IMG/VR virus record: IMGVR_UViG_2698536687_000005
Origin: a virus
Lineage: Duplodnaviria; Heunggongvirae; Uroviricota; Caudoviricetes
Length of the DNA stretch: 35,705 nucleotides
Direction: 5' to 3' (one strand)
Made by a program: the position numbers and the translations under genes. The notes beneath the pieces were generated by a model. The model was given only the letters and a program-made list of their open reading frames with translations, was not told the DNA's origin and searched no databases. How positions within the stretch are numbered: the first letter of the stretch is position 1; each line of letters opens with the position of its first letter. Below, one piece after another: positions 1,137-34,771 of this stretch.

Positions 1137-2813
1137 CTAAGCAACATGCAGTTCATCGTTGGCGGAAGTTGCTGCTTTGCGCTCTTGCTCAATCGCCAGT
1201 GACTCTCTATATTCTTTCGCTTCCGCAAACATTGTCCATTGTGCGTTGATGTTCATATCTTCAATAACAGACTTAATTTCTTTAATATTTACGTTGAAAA
1301 ACTCTTTTCGTGAGTTAATTTTATTGACCTGTTTTTCGTTGAAGACTTTATGCAGATGATTTTCTAATGATGGTGCATCATCACTATAAATCATCGCATG
1401 AACATCGAACGAAAAAGGAACACTAGCATCACCGAGTTCACGAACACGATCAAGTGGTTCAAGGCGGCGTGTCATTCCAATTTTATATACATCTTCGCCA
1501 AATGAGCCAATATTACTAATTATATAAACGTGGCCTGATCTAGTTTGTTGAGCCATAGAAATAGCTCGTTGGTTTTTAGCTTCAGCTTCTTCATATTTTA
1601 ACTGTAGTTCAGCTATTTTTTGCTCTAAAGCTAAGCGTTGTTCTTCATTTGCAAGCATAAGCTCTTTTGTTGCTTTATTTATAGCTTGCTGAATAGCTTT
1701 CTCTTCTTTTTCAGCTTCTTTTATCGCTTTTTCATACTCCCTACGAGCTCTTTCCTCTTCACGAAGTTGTTCTTTAATCCTTCTTTGCTCTTCTTTTTCT
1801 TCGAGCATAATTTCATTAACTGCAACTCCCCATTTTAGCTCGTTGAGTCGAGCTTGAAGATAGATGTCACTTATTTTTGCGGACCTAAAGGCAGAACCAT
1901 TGTAATTTACAAGTTGAAACGCATCTTTTATCTCTTGGGAAAGTTTTCCAAAATTGTTGTGTTTGACTTTTGATAAAATACTGTCAACTCTTCCATTGAA
2001 GGCATCTAAAACAAAGTTGATAGCAGTATTACGCCTGTTTTGTTCAACATAATCACACGAAGCAGCTTTATTAGTTTTTATTAATGATTTTGTTAACTCC
2101 CTGGCTTTTTGTAATTCCTTACCTGCATCTGTAAACTCATAATTTTCTGCCAATTCATCGAGAACGCTACGGTTAGGGATGATCCATTCATCACCATAAC
2201 CTTCAATTTTATTTTTCATTGATTTGGCAACTGCTTCATATTTTTCTGCAAACTCTTTAGCTTCATATGCTGAACCAGCAATCTCTTTTGCTCTTTCTTC
2301 TGCATCGGAAATAATTTTCACTGCATTGTCATTAGCATTTGAGATCAGCTCATTTGCTTTACTATTGGCATTATCAAGACGTTCTTTAGCTTTCAGGCGT
2401 GCATCGCGAGCGTCTTTAGTAATTGCTATAGCTTCGCTATTAGCGTTGCTTATTTTTATCTGAGCTTGATAATTTGCTTCGTTTACTGTCTTAGCAGCCT
2501 TTATTTGGGCTTCTTCTATTTTTTGCCTGGCTATTGAGTCTGCATTTTTTATCTTATTCTCTGCTTCCATCACTGCGCTGTGCAATTCTACGTATTGCCA
2601 TAATGGCGCAGCTCGTCCTTCAAGCTCTGATAGATCTCGTACAGTCTGTGCTAATTCTTCTTGATTTTCTTTCAGTTGGTTGGAAAGGGCTATGTTGTTA
2701 TCTGTCAAGGTATTTATAGCCGCTTTATGTTTTTTGCTTTGCTTAAATAATATTACAGCTAGAATGGGGGTGAGAAATGCTAATAAGAATATAACGATGG
2801 AAAATGAATTCAT
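1137..2813 (-). CDS. Membrane-anchored coiled-coil protein with DUF4041-like region and C-terminal T5orf172/MUG113 (GIY-YIG-like) domain; candidate defence/abortive-infection cargo
   Basis: 558-aa ORF. N-terminal hydrophobic helix (SIVIFLLAFLTPILAVILF), about 300 aa of K/E/A-rich heptad-like sequence, C-terminal 'HVYIISNIGSFGEDVYKIGMTRRLEPLDRVRELG...FSFDVHAMI...LENHLHKVF' matching the T5orf172 signature. AT-rich relative to backbone. AAGGA RBS 8 nt upstream. Confidence 0.75.
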   Translation of the reverse strand: MNSFSIVIFLLAFLTPILAVILFKQSKKHKAAINTLTDNNIALSNQLKENQEELAQTVRDLSELEGRAAPLWQYVELHSAVMEAENKIKNADSIARQKIEEAQIKAAKTVNEANYQAQIKISNANSEAIAITKDARDARLKAKERLDNANSKANELISNANDNAVKIISDAEERAKEIAGSAYEAKEFAEKYEAVAKSMKNKIEGYGDEWIIPNRSVLDELAENYEFTDAGKELQKARELTKSLIKTNKAASCDYVEQNRRNTAINFVLDAFNGRVDSILSKVKHNNFGKLSQEIKDAFQLVNYNGSAFRSAKISDIYLQARLNELKWGVAVNEIMLEEKEEQRRIKEQLREEERARREYEKAIKEAEKEEKAIQQAINKATKELMLANEEQRLALEQKIAELQLKYEEAEAKNQRAISMAQQTRSGHVYIISNIGSFGEDVYKIGMTRRLEPLDRVRELGDASVPFSFDVHAMIYSDDAPSLENHLHKVFNEKQVNKINSRKEFFNVNIKEIKSVIEDMNINAQWTMFAEAKEYRESLAIEQERKAATSANDELHVA

Positions 2814-2833: not shown

Positions 2834-3430
2834 TTAATTTGAAACTATTGTACTTCTTATACAAGCAACTACTTCAATATCAGAAAATGCACATTCAAAG
2901 CTATTCTCTGTACTTGTAATTTTAATCATACCTTTTGGAAGCTTTGTGATTTTTCGAATGGAATAGGTTCCGTCGATGTTGATTAACCAGTGCCCATCAA
3001 GTACTTCAGAAAATTTTTGATCACAAATGTATGTGACGAGCCCATCCTGAATAACAATTGGTGATGAAAGATTTGCAGGAAGAAATGATGAATCGAAGAC
3101 ATATGAACCATCTTCAATCATTTTGCCTGCGGTAAGGCGAAACTTGGCAAGCTCTTCTGTAGCTGCTGTCAGCGAGCTTTGCTTAAGGCCTTGCCCGGTG
3201 GTTAACCATTTCAGTGAGGTTCCTGTTTCAAGAGCACATTGGATTATCCAGTCTGCAGGAAACGTATCCCGCAAATACCTGTTCGCCAGAGTGCTTTTTG
3301 ATACTTCCAAGTGATCAGCTAAAGCCTGTCGTGTCGTAAAGCCATAAGCTTCGACTAATCGCTCAATCGCAGCCTTACCACCTTTATTGGGATTTATTTT
3401 GATCTCATTTGGGTACTTTGATGTTGACAT
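2834..3430 (-). CDS. cI: Immunity repressor, phage 186 CI-like (N-terminal HTH, no S24 autoprotease motif seen)
   Basis: 198-aa ORF; N-terminal HTH-like 'FTTRQALADHLEVSKSTLANRY'; no G-x-S-M/Lys dyad; positioned between int-side cargo and apl, opposite orientation to apl. Confidence 0.75.
   Translation of the reverse strand: MSTSKYPNEIKINPNKGGKAAIERLVEAYGFTTRQALADHLEVSKSTLANRYLRDTFPADWIIQCALETGTSLKWLTTGQGLKQSSLTAATEELAKFRLTAGKMIEDGSYVFDSSFLPANLSSPIVIQDGLVTYICDQKFSEVLDGHWLINIDGTYSIRKITKLPKGMIKITSTENSFECAFSDIEVVACIRSTIVSN
3406..3418. repeat. 13-bp direct repeat CATTTGGGTACTT, copy 1 (inside cI N-terminal codons)
   Basis: Exact copy of the motif at 3465-3477; a degenerate third copy CATTTTGGGATAC lies at 3751-3763. 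Confidence 0.5.
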
Positions 3431-9412: not shown

Positions 9413-10219
9413 TTATTTAGAAAGGTACTTATCTCTAAGTTGATTCAGTCTGTCAGCATCGCGTTCTGAAAACTCGGCGTCACCATAGATCGATTTCCCA
9501 TCTGCGTCTTCAAGGCCAATGACTGTGACGGTAAATATAGCATCAGCCGGAACTTTAAGTTTTCCCCAATCAGAGTATCTATTAGGGGCTAATTTCCAGT
9601 TGGCTTTCTCACCTGGTTCCAGACCTCCAGAAATTTTATAGTTGAAGACGTCAGAGAACCAAGGGACGCTTCTTCCTGGGCTGGCAATAACTCCTTTGAA
9701 GAATACTCTGGCAACCGCTTTGTCTGTTCCGTTTTCAACGCTAATATCCAGAATTGGCTGATCATTGCCGTAATCCTCTTTCTGGAAATAAAAACGGGAA
9801 CGTTCGACCTTGAAGGCTTTCATTTTTTCCGCAGCCTGTGTTGCAGAGGTTTGTTTGGCTTCCAGTTCTTTTATTTCTTGCAGAGCCTGTTCTTTCTCTC
9901 TCTTCTCACGCTCAAGGCGAATAGTTTGTGCGTAATTTATAACCTCATCACCAGTTTTACCTTCCAACGCTGACTTAATTTTTGTTTCGTAGACGTCCCC
10001 AGAAGACGTTCCAGCCTGCATTAGCTCTCTCATGTTGATTTGGCTAAAGGCAACGACTTTAACTGCATCATCAAACTGAGCTTTTTTATCTGCAGGTAAG
10101 GACTCTCTTACTTTTTGAATGGACTCTTTCATCGACTGATCGCTTGATGCATCGATCTTCGGTTTGTCACAAGCAGTAAGCAGCAGAGCAAAAGCAATTA
10201 CGCCAGTTAATTTCTTCAT
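9413..10219 (-). CDS. Lipoprotein with central coiled-coil and C-terminal domain of unknown function (cargo)
   Basis: 268 aa from ATG at 10219 (track ORF extends to 10291); signal peptide 'MKKLTGVIAFALLLTAC' with lipobox; charged coiled-coil segment 'EREKREKEQALQEIKELEAKQ'. Confidence 0.65.
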   Translation of the reverse strand: MKKLTGVIAFALLLTACDKPKIDASSDQSMKESIQKVRESLPADKKAQFDDAVKVVAFSQINMRELMQAGTSSGDVYETKIKSALEGKTGDEVINYAQTIRLEREKREKEQALQEIKELEAKQTSATQAAEKMKAFKVERSRFYFQKEDYGNDQPILDISVENGTDKAVARVFFKGVIASPGRSVPWFSDVFNYKISGGLEPGEKANWKLAPNRYSDWGKLKVPADAIFTVTVIGLEDADGKSIYGDAEFSERDADRLNQLRDKYLSK

Positions 10220-10247
10220 ATCCCTATCCCAATCGTAAAAAAACAAG

Positions 10248-10268
10248 GCTAATCCTAACAGGATTAGC
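10248..10268. promoter_or_regulatory. Palindrome GCTAATCC-N5-GGATTAGC upstream of the 268-aa lipoprotein gene
   Basis: 8-bp perfect arms, 29-51 bp upstream of start codon at 10219; candidate operator. Confidence 0.4.
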
Positions 10269-10740
10269 GGGCATGACAAACTCATAGCCATATAGGTGTG
10301 CTGTATAAATTAGCGGGATGAGAAAGCCTGCACAGACCCTCATGTTGAAACTTGATTTTAGCTCAAAAGAGCTGACACTAAATAACTGCGCGGAATAATG
10401 CTCCACTTTCGGTTAGCCCTTGGCCCTTGCTGGGTAAGGCGTGGGGCCGTTTTCTTCGCCTGATCCTGCTGTATCTGGCCTACAGTATGTTGTCCTTACG
10501 CGACATGCCACATGTCAGTAAACGGCAGGTGTAGCAGTATTAGACGCAGCTATTTAGTGTGTATTAAGCTGGCTCATATTTATGACTGGTTTCAAGGTTT
10601 GACCGATTTCATGTCATGCATGTCTATGCTGCATGAGTTCGCATGATCGTTTGAGGATCGGTTTGGCTAAGACATGCCAGAACTGGCGGGCTTTTGCTCA
10701 TGTCATGCAGGTGCATGAAAACTACTACATAAAGCGGGCA

Positions 10741-10759
10741 GGCGTGGCGGGGATACGAG
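10741..10759. other. Candidate cos site (P2/186-type cohesive end)
   Basis: GGCGTGGCGGGGATACGAG; first 13 nt match the 186 cohesive-end sequence as recalled (GGCGTGGCGGGGAAAGCAT); lies between gene A side and Q as expected. Confidence 0.45.
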
Positions 10760-10869
10760 CGCGCGCTCATGGTTGAATTAATGAAATTATGGTGTTAAAT
10801 AGGCTAGCTTTTTAAGTCGTGAATATTCAATTTTTCAACTCATTTTTTTCATAGGGAGAAGTAATTGAC

Positions 10870-11568
10870 ATGGTTATGTTAGTGGATGACTGTCCACGAT
10901 GTGGATCACAAAAAATAGCGTTTGATGTTAATGGGCTGAATTGCACTAGGGTTTACAATGCATTGGGCGGGGGTAAAACATACGAGTACGAGGTCTATTG
11001 TGTTTGCCGAGAGTGTCATAAAACGACAATGTTTCTTTGCAGACCTTTAACGAAAAATAAAACTTTAGATGGCTATAATTGGGAAAGTGGAATATTCGGC
11101 TTAAAGGAAGTTGCAGAGGTTGTTAGGCCTATATCACCAGCAGACTTAGCAGTAGAGGAGCCACCAGAGTTCTTACCTGAGCATATCAATAGTGCATATG
11201 AGGAAGGGGCGAAATGTTTGGCTATAGGTTGTTATAATGCAGCAGCAACCATGTTTAGGCTTTGCCTTGATTATGCCACAAAAGGACTTCTTCCTGATGG
11301 GGAGCAAGGGCCTGCGCAAAAAATAAGGAGAAGCCTAGGGTTAAGAATGGAGTGGTTATTTGATAATCATCTACTGCCTGAAGCTTTAAGGGAACTAGCT
11401 GAATGCGTTAAAGATGACGGAAATGATGGAGCGCATGAAGGTATTTTGGATAAAGCTGCTGCTGAGGATCTTGAAGATTTTACCTATCTTTTTTTAGAAC
11501 GGCTTTACACTGAACCTCAACGCCTTATCGAAGCCAAGACAAGGCGTGAACAAAGAAGAAACAAATAA
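10870..11568 (+). CDS. Zn-ribbon + DUF4145 (HEPN-like) protein; candidate single-gene defence/Abi cargo
   Basis: 232 aa; N-terminal 'CPRCGS ... CVCRECH' four-Cys arrangement; C-terminal 'YEEGAKCLAIGCYNAAATMFRLCLDYATK ... NDGAHEG' resembling DUF4145; AT-rich promoter-like upstream region; GGGAGAAG RBS. Confidence 0.6.
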   Translation: MVMLVDDCPRCGSQKIAFDVNGLNCTRVYNALGGGKTYEYEVYCVCRECHKTTMFLCRPLTKNKTLDGYNWESGIFGLKEVAEVVRPISPADLAVEEPPEFLPEHINSAYEEGAKCLAIGCYNAAATMFRLCLDYATKGLLPDGEQGPAQKIRRSLGLRMEWLFDNHLLPEALRELAECVKDDGNDGAHEGILDKAAAEDLEDFTYLFLERLYTEPQRLIEAKTRREQRRNK

Positions 11569-22225: not shown

Positions 22226-22823
22226 TCTGCTGCCACCGGGTTCAACTTCACTGGAGCGCCGACTGGCGCAGACCTGTAGCGGGATTTCTGATCTGCAGGT
22301 GCCGCTGCGTGACTTGTGGAATCCGGCTGCCTGTCCGGTCAGCTTCCTGCCTTATCTCGCCTGGGCGTTCTCTGTGGATCGCTGGGACGAGGGCTGGACA
22401 GAAAGCGTCAAACGCCAGGTAGTGAAGGATGCTTTTTATATTCATCAGCATAAAGGAACCACCAGTGCCGTGCGGCGGGTGGTGGAACCGTTCGGATTCC
22501 TGATCCGCATTATTGAGTGGTGGCAGACCGGAGAAACACCGGGCACGTTTCGCCTGGATATCGGCGTGCAGGACCAGGGCATCACTGAAGATACCTATCT
22601 GGAACTTGAGCGGCTGATAAGCGATGCCAAACCATGTAGCCGTCACATGATCGGCATGTCCATCAATCTGCAGACCAGCGGTCCGCATTGGGTGGGGGCC
22701 GCCAGCTATCTTGGCGAAGAAATCACGATCTATCCGTATATCAACGAAACAATTATTTCTGGCGGCACCGCGCATGAAGGCGGGGCGGTCCATGTTATTG
22801 ACACAATGAGAGTGAATCCATGA
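22218..22823 (+). CDS. I: Baseplate/tail protein I
   Basis: 201 aa; position. Confidence 0.82.
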   Translation: MNSLLPPGSTSLERRLAQTCSGISDLQVPLRDLWNPAACPVSFLPYLAWAFSVDRWDEGWTESVKRQVVKDAFYIHQHKGTTSAVRRVVEPFGFLIRIIEWWQTGETPGTFRLDIGVQDQGITEDTYLELERLISDAKPCSRHMIGMSINLQTSGPHWVGAASYLGEEITIYPYINETIISGGTAHEGGAVHVIDTMRVNP

Positions 22824-24550
22824 GCACAAAATTTTATACCCTGCTGACGGATATTGGCGCGGCGAAACTTGCCAGCGCCGCCGCACTCGGTGTGCCGTTA
22901 AAAATTACCCATATGGCGGTAGGCGATGGCGGCGGAACATTACCAACGCCGGATGCAAAGCAGACTGCACTGGTAAATGAGAAACGCCGGGCTGCGCTGA
23001 ATATGCTCTATATCGACCCGCAAAACAGCAGCCAGATTATTGCTGAACAGGTGATCCCTGAAAACGAGGGTGGTTGGTGGATACGTGAAGTGGGCCTGTT
23101 TGATGAATCCGGGGCATTAATTGCCGTGGGCAACTGCCCGGAAAGCTATAAGCCGCAACTGGCTGAAGGCAGCGGGCGCACCCAGACAGTGCGCATGGTG
23201 CTGATTACCAGCAGCACGGACAATATCACCCTGAAAATCGACCCTGCTGTCGTGCTGGCAACCCGTCATTATGTAGATCAACAAATAGAAATTCATGAGC
23301 AATCGCGCCGCCATCCTTCTGCGTCTTTGACAGAAAAGGGATTTGTACGTCTGTATAGCGGTGTGGAAAGCAATGATGAAACAGTCGCTGCAACGCCAAA
23401 AGCAGTGAAAATAGCGATGGATAATGCCAGCGCCAGACTGGCAAAAGACCGCAATGGTTCTGATATTCCCAATCCGGCACTGTTTGTTCAGAATCTGGGA
23501 TTGAAAACGACTGTTGATAAAGCTGCATCAGCGATTCAGCCAGGAGATTATGGAATTGGCCTGGCTTATCTGAAAACCATGGGAACCAAATCGCAATTTT
23601 TTGCTTATGGTACAGCTGTCGGCTATCCAGAAGTGCCAACACATGGTGCTGGTTTCCAGGCCTGTTACAACGACAATCGACGTGCACAGATTTATGTCGC
23701 TAATGATGGCAAGATGTACTGTCGATTCAGCATGTTATCGAAAATTGCCGATGATGAAACACCGTGGAATCAGGTGTTCACCAGTGCACATTATCCAGAA
23801 GCATCAGTGAGTGTTAAAGGAATGGTGCAACTGGGGAACGATGTAAACAGCGTGTCAGAAAATGTTGCGGCGACATTGAAAGCGGTAAAAATTGCGATGG
23901 ACAACGCCAGCGCGAGACTGGCAAAGGACCGCAATGGTGCTGATATTCCTGACCCGACTTTGTTTATTCAGAATTTGGGACTTAAACCGACGGTTGATAA
24001 GGCTGAAAGTGCTCTGCAACAGGGAGCATACGGAATTGGTGGTAAAAATAACTACGAAATGGGGGAGGTTTCACAGTTTCTTGCATATTCAGGTAATGCA
24101 GATGAAGTGCCATCGAATGGTGCAGGTTTTCAGGCTGCGTATAACAAGAACAGACGCGCGCAGATTTTCATCACCGGAGCAGGGGAAATGTATCACCGTT
24201 TCAGCGGCTCTGATACGGTTAAAGACAGTACAACGCTATGGCGCCGGGGTGTTTGTGAAGATGAATTTTCATTTGGCAGCAATTATCACCGAATAACTGG
24301 CGGTGTGCTGAAGCAGTTTTTTAACAGTTATTTTTCCGGGGAAACTGGTGTGGTGAATAAAAATTATCAGGTGAATTTTCCGACACCATTTGCCCGTCAG
24401 TGCTGGTACGTGATCCCTGTTTTCCGTTCGGCACACGGTGGGAGTGTTGAGGGGGTTGCCATTACAACTATTACTGCAACTGGTTTTACTCTGAGCATCA
24501 CCGGGGATAACGGTGGATGGAATATTGGGTTTATTGCGGAGGGGGTCTGA
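22820..24550 (+). CDS. H: Tail fibre protein (P2 gpH family) with internally duplicated C-terminal module
   Basis: 576 aa; N-terminus 'MSTKFYTLLTDIGAAKLASAAALG...' typical of P2 gpH; two tandem homologous segments of about 120 aa in the distal part. Confidence 0.88.
   Translation: MSTKFYTLLTDIGAAKLASAAALGVPLKITHMAVGDGGGTLPTPDAKQTALVNEKRRAALNMLYIDPQNSSQIIAEQVIPENEGGWWIREVGLFDESGALIAVGNCPESYKPQLAEGSGRTQTVRMVLITSSTDNITLKIDPAVVLATRHYVDQQIEIHEQSRRHPSASLTEKGFVRLYSGVESNDETVAATPKAVKIAMDNASARLAKDRNGSDIPNPALFVQNLGLKTTVDKAASAIQPGDYGIGLAYLKTMGTKSQFFAYGTAVGYPEVPTHGAGFQACYNDNRRAQIYVANDGKMYCRFSMLSKIADDETPWNQVFTSAHYPEASVSVKGMVQLGNDVNSVSENVAATLKAVKIAMDNASARLAKDRNGADIPDPTLFIQNLGLKPTVDKAESALQQGAYGIGGKNNYEMGEVSQFLAYSGNADEVPSNGAGFQAAYNKNRRAQIFITGAGEMYHRFSGSDTVKDSTTLWRRGVCEDEFSFGSNYHRITGGVLKQFFNSYFSGETGVVNKNYQVNFPTPFARQCWYVIPVFRSAHGGSVEGVAITTITATGFTLSITGDNGGWNIGFIAEGV
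23373..24205 (+). repeat. Tandem duplication inside gene H (two homologous ~350-bp units)
   Basis: Unit 1 about 23373-23730 ('NDETVAATPKAVKIAMDNASARLAKDRNGSDIP...GAGFQACYNDNRRAQIYV') and unit 2 about 23853-24205 ('SENVAATLKAVKIAMDNASARLAKDRNGADIP...GAGFQAAYNKNRRAQIFI'); divergent copies. Confidence 0.8.
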
Positions 24551-24984
24551 TGAGTTATTTTTACAGTCCATCAAGAAATGCATTTTATAACAGTGAACTG
24601 AAATCTGATTATTACGATGCTCTCGATGCGTGGCCGGATGACTGTATTGAGGTAAGTGATGCAGTCTATCAGGAGTTTTATCTTGGTTATCGGGAAGGGT
24701 ACAAAATGGTTGCAGGTACTGATAACCAGCCATCATGGGAAGAACGTCCACCATTGACCCATGAGGAACAGGTGGAACAGGCAGAAATGATGAAACAGAT
24801 GCGCATTAATGAGGCTAACAACCTGATTAATGAAAAACAATGGCCATCAAAATTACAGCTTGGCAGGCTGAACGAAATGGAGACAACCAGATTTAATGCG
24901 ATGCTGGATTATCTTGAGTTACTTGAAAATATTAATGTAAGTGATGCCCCGGATATAGTCTGGCCTTTATCACCAGAAGTCTGA
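24550..24984 (+). CDS. G: Tail fibre assembly chaperone (P2 gpG)
   Basis: 144 aa from ATG at 24550 overlapping H stop (ATGA); follows H. Confidence 0.78.
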   Translation: MSYFYSPSRNAFYNSELKSDYYDALDAWPDDCIEVSDAVYQEFYLGYREGYKMVAGTDNQPSWEERPPLTHEEQVEQAEMMKQMRINEANNLINEKQWPSKLQLGRLNEMETTRFNAMLDYLELLENINVSDAPDIVWPLSPEV

Positions 24985-25116: not shown

Positions 25117-26289
25117 ATGGCTCAGGATTACCACCACGGGGTGCGCGTTGTTGAAGTCAACGAAGGCACCCGATCCATTACCACGGTGAGCACCGCCATC
25201 GTGGGTATGGTCTGCACGGGCGATGATGCCGATGCAAAAATGTTTCCTCTTAATAAACCCGTGCTGATCACTGATGTGCTGACTGCCAGCGGTAAAGCGG
25301 GTGAGTCCGGTACTCTGGCCCGTTCGCTGGATGCCATCGCTGACCAGGCAAAACCCGTGACCGTTGTTGTGCGTGTGCCGCAGGGTGAAACGGAAGAAGA
25401 AACCACGACCAATATCATCGGCGCAGTGACTGCTGAAGGTAAAAAAACAGGCATGAAAGCCCTGTTATCTGCCCAGACACAGCTCGGCGTTAAACCGCGC
25501 ATTCTCGGCGTGCCAGGTCACGATAACAAAGCCGTTGCTACTGAGTTGCTGAGTGTGGCGCAAAGCCTGCGTGGGTTTGCTTACCTGTCAGCGTATGGCT
25601 GCAAGACGGTGCAGGAGGCGATCACTTACCGTGAAAACTTCAGCCAGCGCGAAGGGATGCTGATCTGGCCTGACTTTACGGGCTGGGACACGGTGCTGAA
25701 TGCCGAAGCAACGGCATATGCCACCGCCCGTGCGCTCGGTCTGCGCGCCAAAATTGATGAGCAGACCGGATGGCACAAAAGCCTGTCCAACGTGGGCGTG
25801 AACGGTGTCACCGGAATTTCTGCTGATGTGTTCTGGGATCTGCAGGACCCGGCAACCGATGCAGGTCTTCTGAACCAGAACGACGTCACCACGCTTGTGC
25901 GTAAAGACGGTTTCCGCTTCTGGGGTTCCCGCTGCCTGAGTGATGACCCGCTCTTTGCCTTCGAAAACTACACCCGCACGGCGCAGGTGCTGACGGACAC
26001 AATGGCAGAAGCGCACATGTGGGCAGTGGACAAACCGCTGAACCCGTCGCTGGCCCGCGACATTATCGAAGGTATCCGCGCCAAAATGCGCAACCTGGTC
26101 AGTCAGGGCTATCTCATTGGTGGTGATTGCTGGCTGGATGAGTCGGTGAACGACAAAGACACGCTTAAAGCCGGAAAACTCACCATCGACTACGACTACA
26201 CGCCAGTGCCGCCACTTGAAAATCTGATGCTGCGCCAGCGCATCACCGATCAGTACCTGGTGAATTTCGCCAGCCAGGTCAGCGCGTAA
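25117..26289 (+). CDS. FI: Tail sheath protein (P2 gpFI)
   Basis: 390 aa; position and size. Confidence 0.9.
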
Positions 26290-32331: not shown

Positions 32332-32862
32332 CTAGCATCCGATAAGGTCGTTTGCTTCAAACTTTGGCAAATGATACTCATTTGCCAAATGTTCGTTATC
32401 TTTGTTATTTTTTAAATATTTGTATTTTAATGTATTTTTATCTTCATTGTATGATAATAAAGCTTCCCCGATAGGAACATCACGCCACCCTATTTGAATG
32501 CAAAGAAGGATAGTGACCTGCCCTTTATGGTTTAGCTTACCCGAGAATGTAAAGGTGCATTTCTCTTCATCAAGGCTTGTTGATGAACAGTTAGTGATAG
32601 TCCCTCCCAAATTGCCGACGACATCTGATGACTCAATTTTTATGCTTATTATATTCTCATTATGGTTGCGAATATCACCAACATTGTTCCAGTTTTTTGA
32701 GACTAGAAGCTCAATAATTCTTTTTTTCTTAAGGCGTTTTACTTCCTTTGCCTGTGGTGAGTATAAGAGGTATGCGGGTATGCCTGCTACAATCGTTGCT
32801 ACAATTGCCAGCACAGCTAATATAATGGTAACCATCTGAAGTCCTTGTTCTTCTGCCGCCAT
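32332..32862 (-). CDS. Membrane-anchored protein of unknown function (cargo between ogr and host junction)
   Basis: 176 aa; N-terminal TM helix (LQMVTIILAVLAIVATIVAGIPAYLLY); strongly AT-rich unlike flanking phage and host DNA. Confidence 0.6.
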   Translation of the reverse strand: MAAEEQGLQMVTIILAVLAIVATIVAGIPAYLLYSPQAKEVKRLKKKRIIELLVSKNWNNVGDIRNHNENIISIKIESSDVVGNLGGTITNCSSTSLDEEKCTFTFSGKLNHKGQVTILLCIQIGWRDVPIGEALLSYNEDKNTLKYKYLKNNKDNEHLANEYHLPKFEANDLIGC

Positions 32863-32930
32863 TTTGCCGCCAAAGATAAGTAAAGTAGTTTCTAACTTAT
32901 TGATTATGGAATGGAAGAATAGCAGGCAAC

Positions 32931-32973
32931 AAAAAACCCATCAACCTTGAACCGAAATGGCGGGGTTGATGGG
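32931..32973 (-). terminator. Intrinsic terminator on minus strand downstream of ybjL
   Basis: 10-bp stem CCCATCAACC/GGTTGATGGG (32937-32946, 32964-32973) preceded on plus strand by AAAAAA (a U-tract on the minus-strand transcript). Confidence 0.55.
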
Positions 32974-33085
32974 CTCCACAAAATGGGGACATCAAAGAAA
33001 AGCAGTGGCACTAATTAAGACTGATGCCCTGCGGAAAAGTTCTGCGGTTGTGCAAAAAAATTTCATTTTCAGGGCAACTTCAGTT

Positions 33086-34771
33086 TTATCCTAATCCTGG
33101 CCATACCATGACGATGATTGTCCCTGCCAGCGTCAGCAGGACGTTGGCGATTGCATAGGTGCCCGCATAGCCCAGCGCCGGGATGTTACTGCGAGCTGTA
33201 TCACTGATGATCTCCATTGCCGGCGCGCAGGTACGTGCGCCCATCATTGCGCCGAACAACAGCGCGCGGTTCATTCGCAATACATAAGCACCGAACAAGA
33301 AACAGATAACCACGGGCACCAGACTGACAATCAATCCGGCAATCAACATCTGACCGCCAATCGCGCCCAGGCCGTTATTAATACCGCTACCGGCGCTCAG
33401 ACCAACGCCTGCCATAAACACCATCAAGCCGAACTCTTTCACCATGCTTAATGCACCCTGCGGAATGTAACCGAAGGTCGGGTGGTTAGCACGCATAAAG
33501 CCCAGCATAATTCCGGCGAATAACAACCCGGCAGCGTTCCCCATGCCGAAACTGAATGTGCTGAACTGGAAGGTGATCATCCCGATCATCAGCCCAATAA
33601 CAAAGAAGGCGCAGAATGCCAGCAGGTCAGTGACCTGGCTGTGAATCGAGATAAAGCCGATGCGATCGGCGATGGTTTTTACGCGGCGGGCATCGCCGCT
33701 GACTTGTAAAACGTCACCTTTGTTAAGCACGACGTTGTCATCTATCGGCATCTCAATCTGGCTACGAATGACGCGGTTAAGGAAGCAACCGTGATCGGTC
33801 AACTTCAGTTGTGCGAGACGTTTACCTACAGCGTTATGGTTTTTAACGACCACTTCTTCAGTGACGATACGCATGTCGAGAAGGTCACGATCGAAAACTT
33901 CTTTACCGTTACGGAAGCTGGGATCGAGTCGGGCATGGGCGTCGGGATAGCCTACCAACGCTATTTCATCGCCCATTTGTAGCACGGCATCACCGTCTGG
34001 ATTTGCCAGAATCCCGTTACGTCGAATACGTTCAATGTAGCAGCCGGTTTGTCGATAAATACCCAGTTCACGCAGATTTTTGCCGTCGGTCCAGGCCACC
34101 AGTTCCGGGCCGACGCGATAGGCGCGGATCACCGGTAAATAAACCTTACGGTTGGCATCAGTGTCCAGGCCACGTTCGCGGGCGATTTGCTGGGCGCTGG
34201 TCTGTAAGTCCTGATGCTGCAATTTCGGCAAGTAACGCGCACCAACAATCAAACTCACCAGACCGATTAAATAGGTTAAGGCATACCCGAGGCTCAGATT
34301 ATCCAGTGCCAGTGAGAGCTGCCTGCTTTCCATGCCGGAATGACGCAGTGTATCGCCAGCACCGACCAGAACCGGTGTCGACGTCATAGAGCCTGCTAAC
34401 ATACCGGCCGTCAGGCCAATATCCCAGCCAAACAGCTTACCTAACCCTAAGGCGATCACCAGCGCACTGCCAACCATCACCAGTGCTAACATTAGGTAAT
34501 TTTTCCCATCGCGAAAAAAAATGGAAAAAAAGTTCGGTCCGGCTTCGACCCCGACGCAGAAAATAAACAGCATAAAGCCAAGATTAAGCGCATCGGTGTT
34601 AATGCTGAAATGTTGTTGGCCTAATAACAGCGATACGACTAAAACGCCAATGGAATTACCCAGTTGGATCGAACCAAGTCGTAACTTTCCGAGACATAGC
34701 CCAAGCGCGAGGACCACAAATAATAACAGAATGTAATTCCCATTTAACAATTCGGCGACGTTTATATTCAC
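33086..34771 (-). CDS. ybjL: Host putative transporter YbjL
   Basis: 561-aa polytopic membrane protein recognised as E. coli YbjL; synteny with ybjM and grxA. Confidence 0.9.

Follow-up and report, generated by a model that had tools for sequence, protein, structure and literature searches.

Two themes recur among the described fibres that most resemble the locus analyzed here. [quoted passage not shown] 2018 judged to be products of duplication (PMC6116203). [quoted passage not shown] The second theme is the switching of fibre ends by DNA inversion: the Mu G/Gin, P1 C/Cin, e14 P/Pin and p15B Min systems possess an invertase, an inverted pair of 26-bp sites and an alternative end, and the Mu S/S' (PDB 5YVQ, 8JU3), P1 S and phage 186 K fibres carry a conserved junction, with gix/cix, between their constant and variable parts. 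Here, we describe a tail fibre gene, H, that touches on both themes. Its distal part is predicted to have the known 'two tandem knobs plus lectin-like foot' design in the order adapter-knob-adapter-knob-foot, a reading we adopt because its second knob is modelled as knob-like and its last 104 aa as a lectin-like sandwich. It differs from the known design in having longer linkers and no long shaft before the foot, and it contains two segments that resemble the Mu junction in a locus that lacks all three components of an inversion system.

The window, by which we mean the whole 35,705-nt stretch of viral DNA that was analyzed, is a P2/186-like prophage of Escherichia coli. H lies in a P2-like late operon with the P2 gpH-type order gpI - H - Tfa (Caudo_TAP) - sheath: ORFs and Pfam place a gpI homologue upstream of H and, directly downstream, the Tfa chaperone gene with the sheath gene after it, and the annotation of the GF47 prophage, identical over H-Tfa, supports this order. 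The features of the locus are:

22820..24550, + strand: tail fibre gene H, 576 aa (ORF list, Pfam, RefSeq annotation of the GF47 prophage)
22820..23266, + strand: N-terminal baseplate-attachment domain (Phage_tail_fib, PF12571; aa 1-149)
23303..23539, + strand: adapter 1 (aa 162-240), a Phage_fiber_2 repeat at aa 169-209 plus a segment homologous to the Mu S junction
23540..23782, + strand: predicted knob-type domain X1 (aa 241-321), homologous to X2 and assigned with a local domain profile
23783..24019, + strand: adapter 2 (aa 322-400), a second Phage_fiber_2 repeat at ~aa 329-369 plus a Mu-junction-like segment
24020..24250, + strand: knob-type domain X2 (aa 401-477), with a predicted knob-like fold
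24251..24547, + strand: C-terminal lectin-like foot (aa 478-576, 99 aa), the probable main receptor-binding tip
24550..24984, + strand: Tfa/gpG homologue, tail fibre assembly chaperone (PF02413 Caudo_TAP, E = 4.9e-26)

PF12571 matches aa 1-149 of H with 218 bits (E = 6.8e-65), and PF03406 scores 101.6 bits over two stretches (gathering cut-off 22), with one Phage_fiber_2 stretch at the head of each repeated unit. The Tfa start and the stop codon of H overlap (TGATG). Tfa runs to 24984, and the sheath gene begins at 25117. P2 gpH and P2-like H alleles share with this gene the PF12571 domain, the first Phage_fiber_2 repeat and the order I-H-G(Tfa)-FI. A P2-type H of 919 aa also contains two internal repeats, each of ~95 aa (z = 31.7), but the compared P2-type H carries gp37_C-type distal domains and no X-type knob, and its distal part is unrelated in sequence to that of H here. 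The block formed by distal H and Tfa is compositionally foreign to its surroundings, with a GC3 of 0.37-0.43 versus 0.55-0.65 in the flanks.

The distal part of H is built from two homologous units arranged in tandem and in frame with a period of 480 nt: unit 1 spans aa 162-321 (23303-23782; 160 aa) and unit 2 aa 322-477 (23783-24250; 156 aa), and the two are 60% identical at the amino acid level. The motif KAVKIAMDNASARLAKDRNG, followed by.DIP, occurs at aa 194 and aa 354, and the motif GAGFQA.YN.NRRAQI at aa 276-291 and aa 434-449. Aligning aa 1-321 locally with aa 322-576 gives a score of 435, compared to 33.5 +/- 5.3 for shuffled sequences (n = 300; z = 75), and at the DNA level a repeat finder detects a 239-nt direct repeat (23321-23559 and 23801-24039) with 480-nt spacing and 71% identity. 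These data bear out an earlier, sequence-only reading of the window, which had proposed tandem homologous units in distal H. That reading had placed them at 23373-24205, inside the true span, and had put their length at ~120 aa, which is too short. Identity between the units is uneven, at 70% over the first 86 aa, within which one 20-aa block is fully identical, and 51% over the remainder. Comparison of the units gives a dN/dS of ~0.2, with dS saturated at 1.4-1.9; both units are under purifying selection.

That the repeat could be an assembly duplication, or H a decaying gene of a functionless prophage, is a notion with next to no probability left to it, and population data refute it. The copies are merely 71% identical in DNA and so do not represent an assembly repeat, and 47-48 of 5426 complete E. 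coli genomes carry the 576-aa ORF intact and 97.7-100% identical over its full length. The ORF also occurs on hundreds of contigs in its two-unit form, and on 15 IMG/VR viral contigs with two different N-terminal backbones. Damaged copies, which such a reading would draw on, do occur: P0122 is a frameshifted variant of the allele, and in E. coli NS-NP030 the gene is interrupted by the IS66 family element ISEc8. An apparent mosaic breakpoint at window position ~23482 in NS-NP030 is this ISEc8 insertion, and we rejected it as a recombination event. Against this stands, in addition, the purifying selection on both units. The H-Tfa segment is 100% identical in the three E. coli chromosomes GF47, GF50 and GF54; complete genomes carry the allele in up to three places, and each of the 48 matching genomes has at least one place covering at least 80% of the 1248-nt query. 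When the distal 415 aa were used as a homologue query, the best 120 matches were all 98-100% identical 576-aa copies. Per-site variability across 121 distinct 576-aa sequences, which are very similar to each other and were chosen by this same region, does not form a clear hot spot in any of X1, X2 and the foot.

X1 and X2 have no Pfam family, and neither Pfam nor PHROGs provides a functional name for them. A PDB sequence search with a profile of seven X domains returned no chain at E <= 10, and hence no solved knob. An AlphaFold monomer model of X2 with short flanks, based on a 10-row alignment, shows five strands with a mean pLDDT of 71.6 (80-90 in the core), in agreement with the antiparallel sheet of five to six strands within ~80-85 aa by which Buth et al. 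2018 delimit knob-like domains. In a Foldseek search with this model, the top three PDB matches are R1/R2 pyocin fibres, with probabilities of 0.96, 0.92 and 0.57 and E-values of 0.2-0.5. From this model, and from the homology of X1 to X2, we predict that X1 and X2 are knob-type five-stranded beta domains of ~80 aa each. The arrangement of these domains differs from that of the R-pyocin in several respects. The pyocin knobs are joined by one short helix-plus-turn, whereas in H a Phage_fiber_2/Mu-junction adapter of ~80 aa precedes each knob; a ~93 A shaft separates Knob2 from the foot in the pyocin, whereas X2 abuts the foot; and the two knobs of R2 pyocin are 20% identical, compared to 48% for X1 and X2.

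Outside this H family, the X domain occurs in otherwise unrelated fibres and is always internal. A profile of the whole unit, run against 1.84 billion cluster representatives, matched 1233 proteins, nearly all of them through the adapter only; among the 150 of these proteins that were listed, nine contain an X domain, including one frameshifted copy and one fragment of this allele. The X profile scores 123 bits on P0121, the 50%-cluster representative of the allele itself. Four of the proteins place the domain as follows:

P0149: X at 248-328 of 573
P0216: X at 402-481 of 658
P0250: two adjacent X copies and an S74 chaperone end
P0268: X at 126-206 of 475

By tblastn, the domain also turns up in various kinds of isolated phages: Hafnia phage yong1, the HK633 side tail fibre, CAjan, JLBYU60, Proteus phage Privateer and Enterobacter phage KKP_3711. 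Scanning genome contigs with the knob-alignment profile identified one locus, in Enterobacter, and a homologue search with a 10-sequence, 81-aa knob profile, which is too divergent for a word-index search, returned one fragment only.

The repeat is followed by the 99-aa foot. The last 104 aa of H are modelled as a seven-strand sandwich (pLDDT 74; monomer, 5-row alignment), and the foot model is a beta-sandwich that can be superposed on solved lectin-like feet. Its match to Gp53-like_C (PF21882), the family of Acinetobacter phage AP22 gp53 (PDB 4MTM), falls just below threshold (23.3 bits, E = 9.6e-5, gathering cut-off 24.9), and a PDB sequence search with the tip gave no match; in two other fibres that bear X, a significant Gp53-like_C domain forms the C-terminal end. 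Among the structure matches of the tip, the foot-only chain 6cxb ranks first, and it is missing from the match list of X2, indicating that the two models match different parts of the pyocin fibre. Judging from these models, the main receptor-binding module is most likely the C-terminal foot that follows the repeat, not the repeat itself. As to the earlier suggestion that the units may form two receptor-binding or polysaccharide-binding modules, the repeated part could plausibly bind sugar, by analogy with the knob-like domains of saccharide-binding fibres and with Knob2, but the likeliest primary tip lies outside the repeat.

The adapters link H to Mu. The only PDB sequence matches obtained with H are to the Mu tail fibre S/S', with aa 327-413 (adapter 2) aligning to Mu S residues 111-198 at E ~1e-23. 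Adapter 1 was assigned through its alignment to the same Mu S segment and its 70% identity to adapter 2, and each adapter is 57.6% identical to that segment. Residues 111-198 of Mu S include the boundary of the G segment (the Sc/Sv, gix junction), where gix, TTATCCAAAACCTCGGTTTACAGGAA, encodes IQNLGLQE. As in Mu, a Caudo_TAP chaperone gene lies downstream, and the gix-encoded peptide is conserved in both adapters of H, at two positions with the same, direct, orientation:

23484..23509, + strand: gix-homologous position 1 (adapter 1), encoding F-VQNLGLKT; 14/26 bases as in gix, dyad 4/12
23964..23989, + strand: gix-homologous position 2 (adapter 2), encoding F-IQNLGLKP; 13/26 bases as in gix, dyad 3/12

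This homology raises the question of whether the locus is the frozen remnant of a Mu G-, P1 C- or p15B Min-type system that inverted several segments, in which the adapters were once crossover sites and the cassettes once invertible segments, now fixed in direct order. The likeness of VQNLGLKT and IQNLGLKP to IQNLGLQE speaks for such an origin, as does the annotation of a 'Mu-like inversion crossover site' at the same position in phage 186 K. At the DNA level, however, gix is matched more closely, at 16/26, by seven unrelated sites in the window than by either adapter position, and we rejected the gix-equivalent DNA as a live crossover site since chance matches at other places in the window fit at least as well. 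Mu combines one junction with an inverted second site, the alternative S'/U' genes and Gin, whereas H has two direct junction-like segments with degenerate sites. A tblastn search of the whole window with Mu Gin found no homologue (best E = 2.7), the DNA repeat finder detected no matching inverted repeat, and on the opposite strand the ORF list shows neither an alternative fibre 3' end nor an alternative chaperone gene. In the GF47 prophage, whose H-Tfa segment is identical, there is no recombinase other than the integrase within 20 kb on either side of H. The absence of an invertase and an invertible segment, asserted from the sequence alone, therefore holds. Since the DNA is degenerate, the orientation direct and a Gin homologue lacking, we interpret the gix-like positions as inherited protein homology and not as a recombination site. 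Inversion as a working system is largely refuted here, and we regard a relic of one as very unlikely.

What the adapters do mark are the joints at which fibre alleles differ. With a degenerate DNA pattern for GAG[FW]Q..Y...RRAQ we collected 27 IMG/VR loci, 15 of which have the two-unit H with a motif spacing of 474 nt. One of the 27, L016, resembles the window at only 66% DNA identity in the N-terminal domain and at 97-99.7% from aa 162 to the stop codon, a pattern that shows the whole distal block to be mobile between P2-like backbones. Comparison of copy number across H alleles revealed one-cassette as well as two-cassette forms. In L014, the N-terminal part through X1 is 87.8% identical to the window. 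The match breaks off within 'AATLKAVK' of adapter 2 (window position ~23889), beyond which the distal part is a different one, rich in glycine; the fragment P0123 belongs to this type. Conversely, L005 (P0125) encodes an H of 416 aa, 160 fewer than 576, in an intact I-H-Tfa-sheath context, and matches the window at 96% identity over X2 and foot. The one adapter it has is a chimera: positions 0-32 are 77% identical to adapter 1 versus 50% to adapter 2, positions 62-79 match adapter 2 (98%), with the crossover inside KAVKIAMDNASARLAKDRNG.DIP, between positions 32 and 62 of the adapter. Tfa travels with the X2-foot block: L005 and the window share 86.6% identity over the homologous segment that begins in adapter 2 and takes in most of Tfa. 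Because the breakpoints of both one-cassette alleles fall in an adapter, we identify the adapters as the joints of exchange, and the units behave as exchangeable cassettes. One-cassette alleles are rare (a few contigs), while two-cassette alleles are found on hundreds of contigs, and their rarity suggests that they may derive from the two-cassette allele and not be its parents. In complete E. coli genomes, X1 and the X2-foot segment occur in the same number, 48 genomes and 66 places each. The longest identical run between adapters 1 and 2 is 12 nt, shorter than RecA-dependent exchange needs for efficiency, which fits the constant length of the region in these genomes.

How the two units came to lie side by side is a separate question. 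The sequence-only reading had viewed them as an old duplication retained under selection; the selection is evident, but duplication is not the best reading of their origin. In its simplest form, one adapter-plus-knob unit would have been doubled in an ancestral H by unequal crossing-over, kept, and allowed to diverge, as Buth et al. infer for the pyocin knobs (PMC6116203). In favor of this, the 480-nt period keeps the units exactly in register and in frame, both are equally low in GC, and both share the low dN/dS of ~0.2. The adapters, moreover, are closer to one another (70%) than to any other 50%-cluster representative (at most 66%), a result that fits true duplication and common descent, or gene conversion. 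The knobs tell a different story: X1 and X2 share 48% identity, X2 reaches 50-52% with the knobs of unrelated fibres and X1 48-49% with others, so that the two are as distant mutually as from knob domains in unrelated phages, and only 4/200 neighbor-joining bootstraps join them as sisters. The saturation of dS and the occurrence of each cassette separately in other alleles, with breakpoints at the adapter, also count against a duplication in situ, which we hold to be possible but distinctly the less likely account. Because the knobs are not sisters and one-cassette alleles have their breakpoints in the adapter, a lineage-specific duplication fits less well than either the joining of two already-diverged cassettes at the adapter or a duplication that predates the spread of the domain. 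We therefore favor, as the probable explanation, that the distal 415 aa comprise two joined or exchangeable adapter-plus-knob cassettes followed by a lectin-like foot. Counting against it, along with the mutual closeness of the adapters and the rarity of one-cassette alleles, are the models themselves, monomers whose alignments were very shallow, at 10 and 5 rows (mean pLDDT 72 and 74), and the fact that X has no sequence-level similarity to any solved knob.

Under the joined-cassette explanation, we propose the following model for the fibre. Each cassette of ~160 aa would consist of a conserved adapter of ~80 aa and then a five-stranded knob-type domain of ~80 aa, and the two knobs would sit as a pair of beads along the shaft of the homotrimeric fibre. 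The beta-sandwich foot, folded with the help of Tfa, would make the main contact with surface carbohydrate, while the knobs would give the fibre length and rigidity and, by analogy with R-pyocin Knob2, might make secondary glycan contacts. X1 and X2 would be already-diverged members of a dispersed domain family. Cassettes would swap between fibre genes at the adapters by homologous recombination, the complete two-cassette block would pass between P2-like backbones, and a register-shifted exchange at either adapter would give rise to one-cassette alleles. A bolder extension, which we offer as speculation and think rather improbable, is that the adapters serve as built-in alternative recombination registers at which knob cassettes are gained or dropped, tuning fibre length and the number of glycan sites, with X1, X2 and the foot each reading a different surface sugar as a multivalent 'combination lock'.

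The repeat in H is an ordinary bead-on-a-string fibre design, and the current view of fibre architecture is unchanged by it. H genes often contain internal repeats in tandem, and many fibres that bear an adapter hold as many as 17 Phage_fiber_2 stretches. What is special here is that the repeated unit takes in a long adapter of the Mu-junction type: among 148 cluster representatives, only this allele family has two well-separated long adapters. The two-knob, X1-only and X2-only alleles, with their breakpoints mapped, provide a natural example of fibres built from exchangeable cassettes. The finding also defines a knob subfamily of ~80 aa that has no Pfam model and is scattered over the fibres of other enterobacterial phages, which is of use in annotating receptor-binding proteins and in engineering P2-type or tailocin fibres.

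The distal portion of H, the tail fibre gene, together with the downstream chaperone gene Tfa (window positions 23303-24984), has a GC content of 0.41-0.485 and a GC3 of 0.37-0.43 throughout, below the GC3 of 0.55-0.65 in neighbouring tail genes. The composition break falls at residues 161/162 of H, the point at which homology with other backbones begins.

Interrupted or frameshifted copies of this H allele also occur. In E. coli NS-NP030 (comparison locus L004, 889-5069), an ISEc8 element of the IS66 family lies inside an H allele of the window type and splits the gene. Its insertion point corresponds to approximately position 23482 of the window, almost exactly the position in adapter 1, the adapter of the first distal cassette, that is homologous to the Mu gix crossover site; we consider this placement probably a coincidence. 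The second case involves a reading frame that overlaps H:

23892-24296, plus strand: +1 ORF of the window, in a different frame from H

P0122, a 491-residue H variant in the database, carries a frameshift through which X2, the knob-type domain of the second cassette, runs on into this ORF; the variant reflects either a pseudogene or an error in sequencing.

A different type of H is found in a P2-type phage (L034; NC_070906.1, 2036-4795), whose 919-residue protein contains two clear tandem repeats of ~95 residues (z = 31.7) and a weak third, and has ends of the gp37_C type. Its repeat motif, DLNT...G.LE....Q.YTTR.GN.Y.R....W, is distinct from that of the window H. H alleles therefore commonly carry domains repeated in tandem.

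Elsewhere, the window carries additional genes at three positions. The first lies between the integrase (1-1053) and CI repressor (2834-3430) genes, in a stretch of low GC content (0.36):

1137-2813, minus strand: 558-residue protein with DUF4041 and T5orf172/MUG113 domains

Its match to PD-Lambda-1, a defence model of PADLOC, is strong (E = 5e-120), and the protein is probably anti-phage cargo carried by the prophage. Between the replication and portal genes, a lower-GC stretch (9413-11568) contains two cargo ORFs:

9413-10291, minus strand: DUF6694 protein
10870-11568, plus strand: DUF4145 protein

The DUF4145 protein weakly matches PADLOC PD-T7-4 (E = 1e-6). The annotated prophage of E. coli GF47, which has the same H-Tfa segment, instead encodes a nuclease and an AAA ATPase at this position. 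The third position covers 32332-34771:

32332-32862, minus strand: 176-residue ORF in a low-GC (0.395) stretch
33086-34771, minus strand: gene for a 561-residue permease (domains Asp-Al_Ex and TrkA_C)

Neither Pfam nor PADLOC matches the 176-residue ORF, a possible moron at the end of the prophage. The ORF sits just before the permease gene, which is probably a host gene.

Among complete E. coli genomes, the window's fibre allele is found at 66 places in 48 genomes, with two or three places in some, which implies that one host can harbour several P2-like prophages that share their receptor-binding block.
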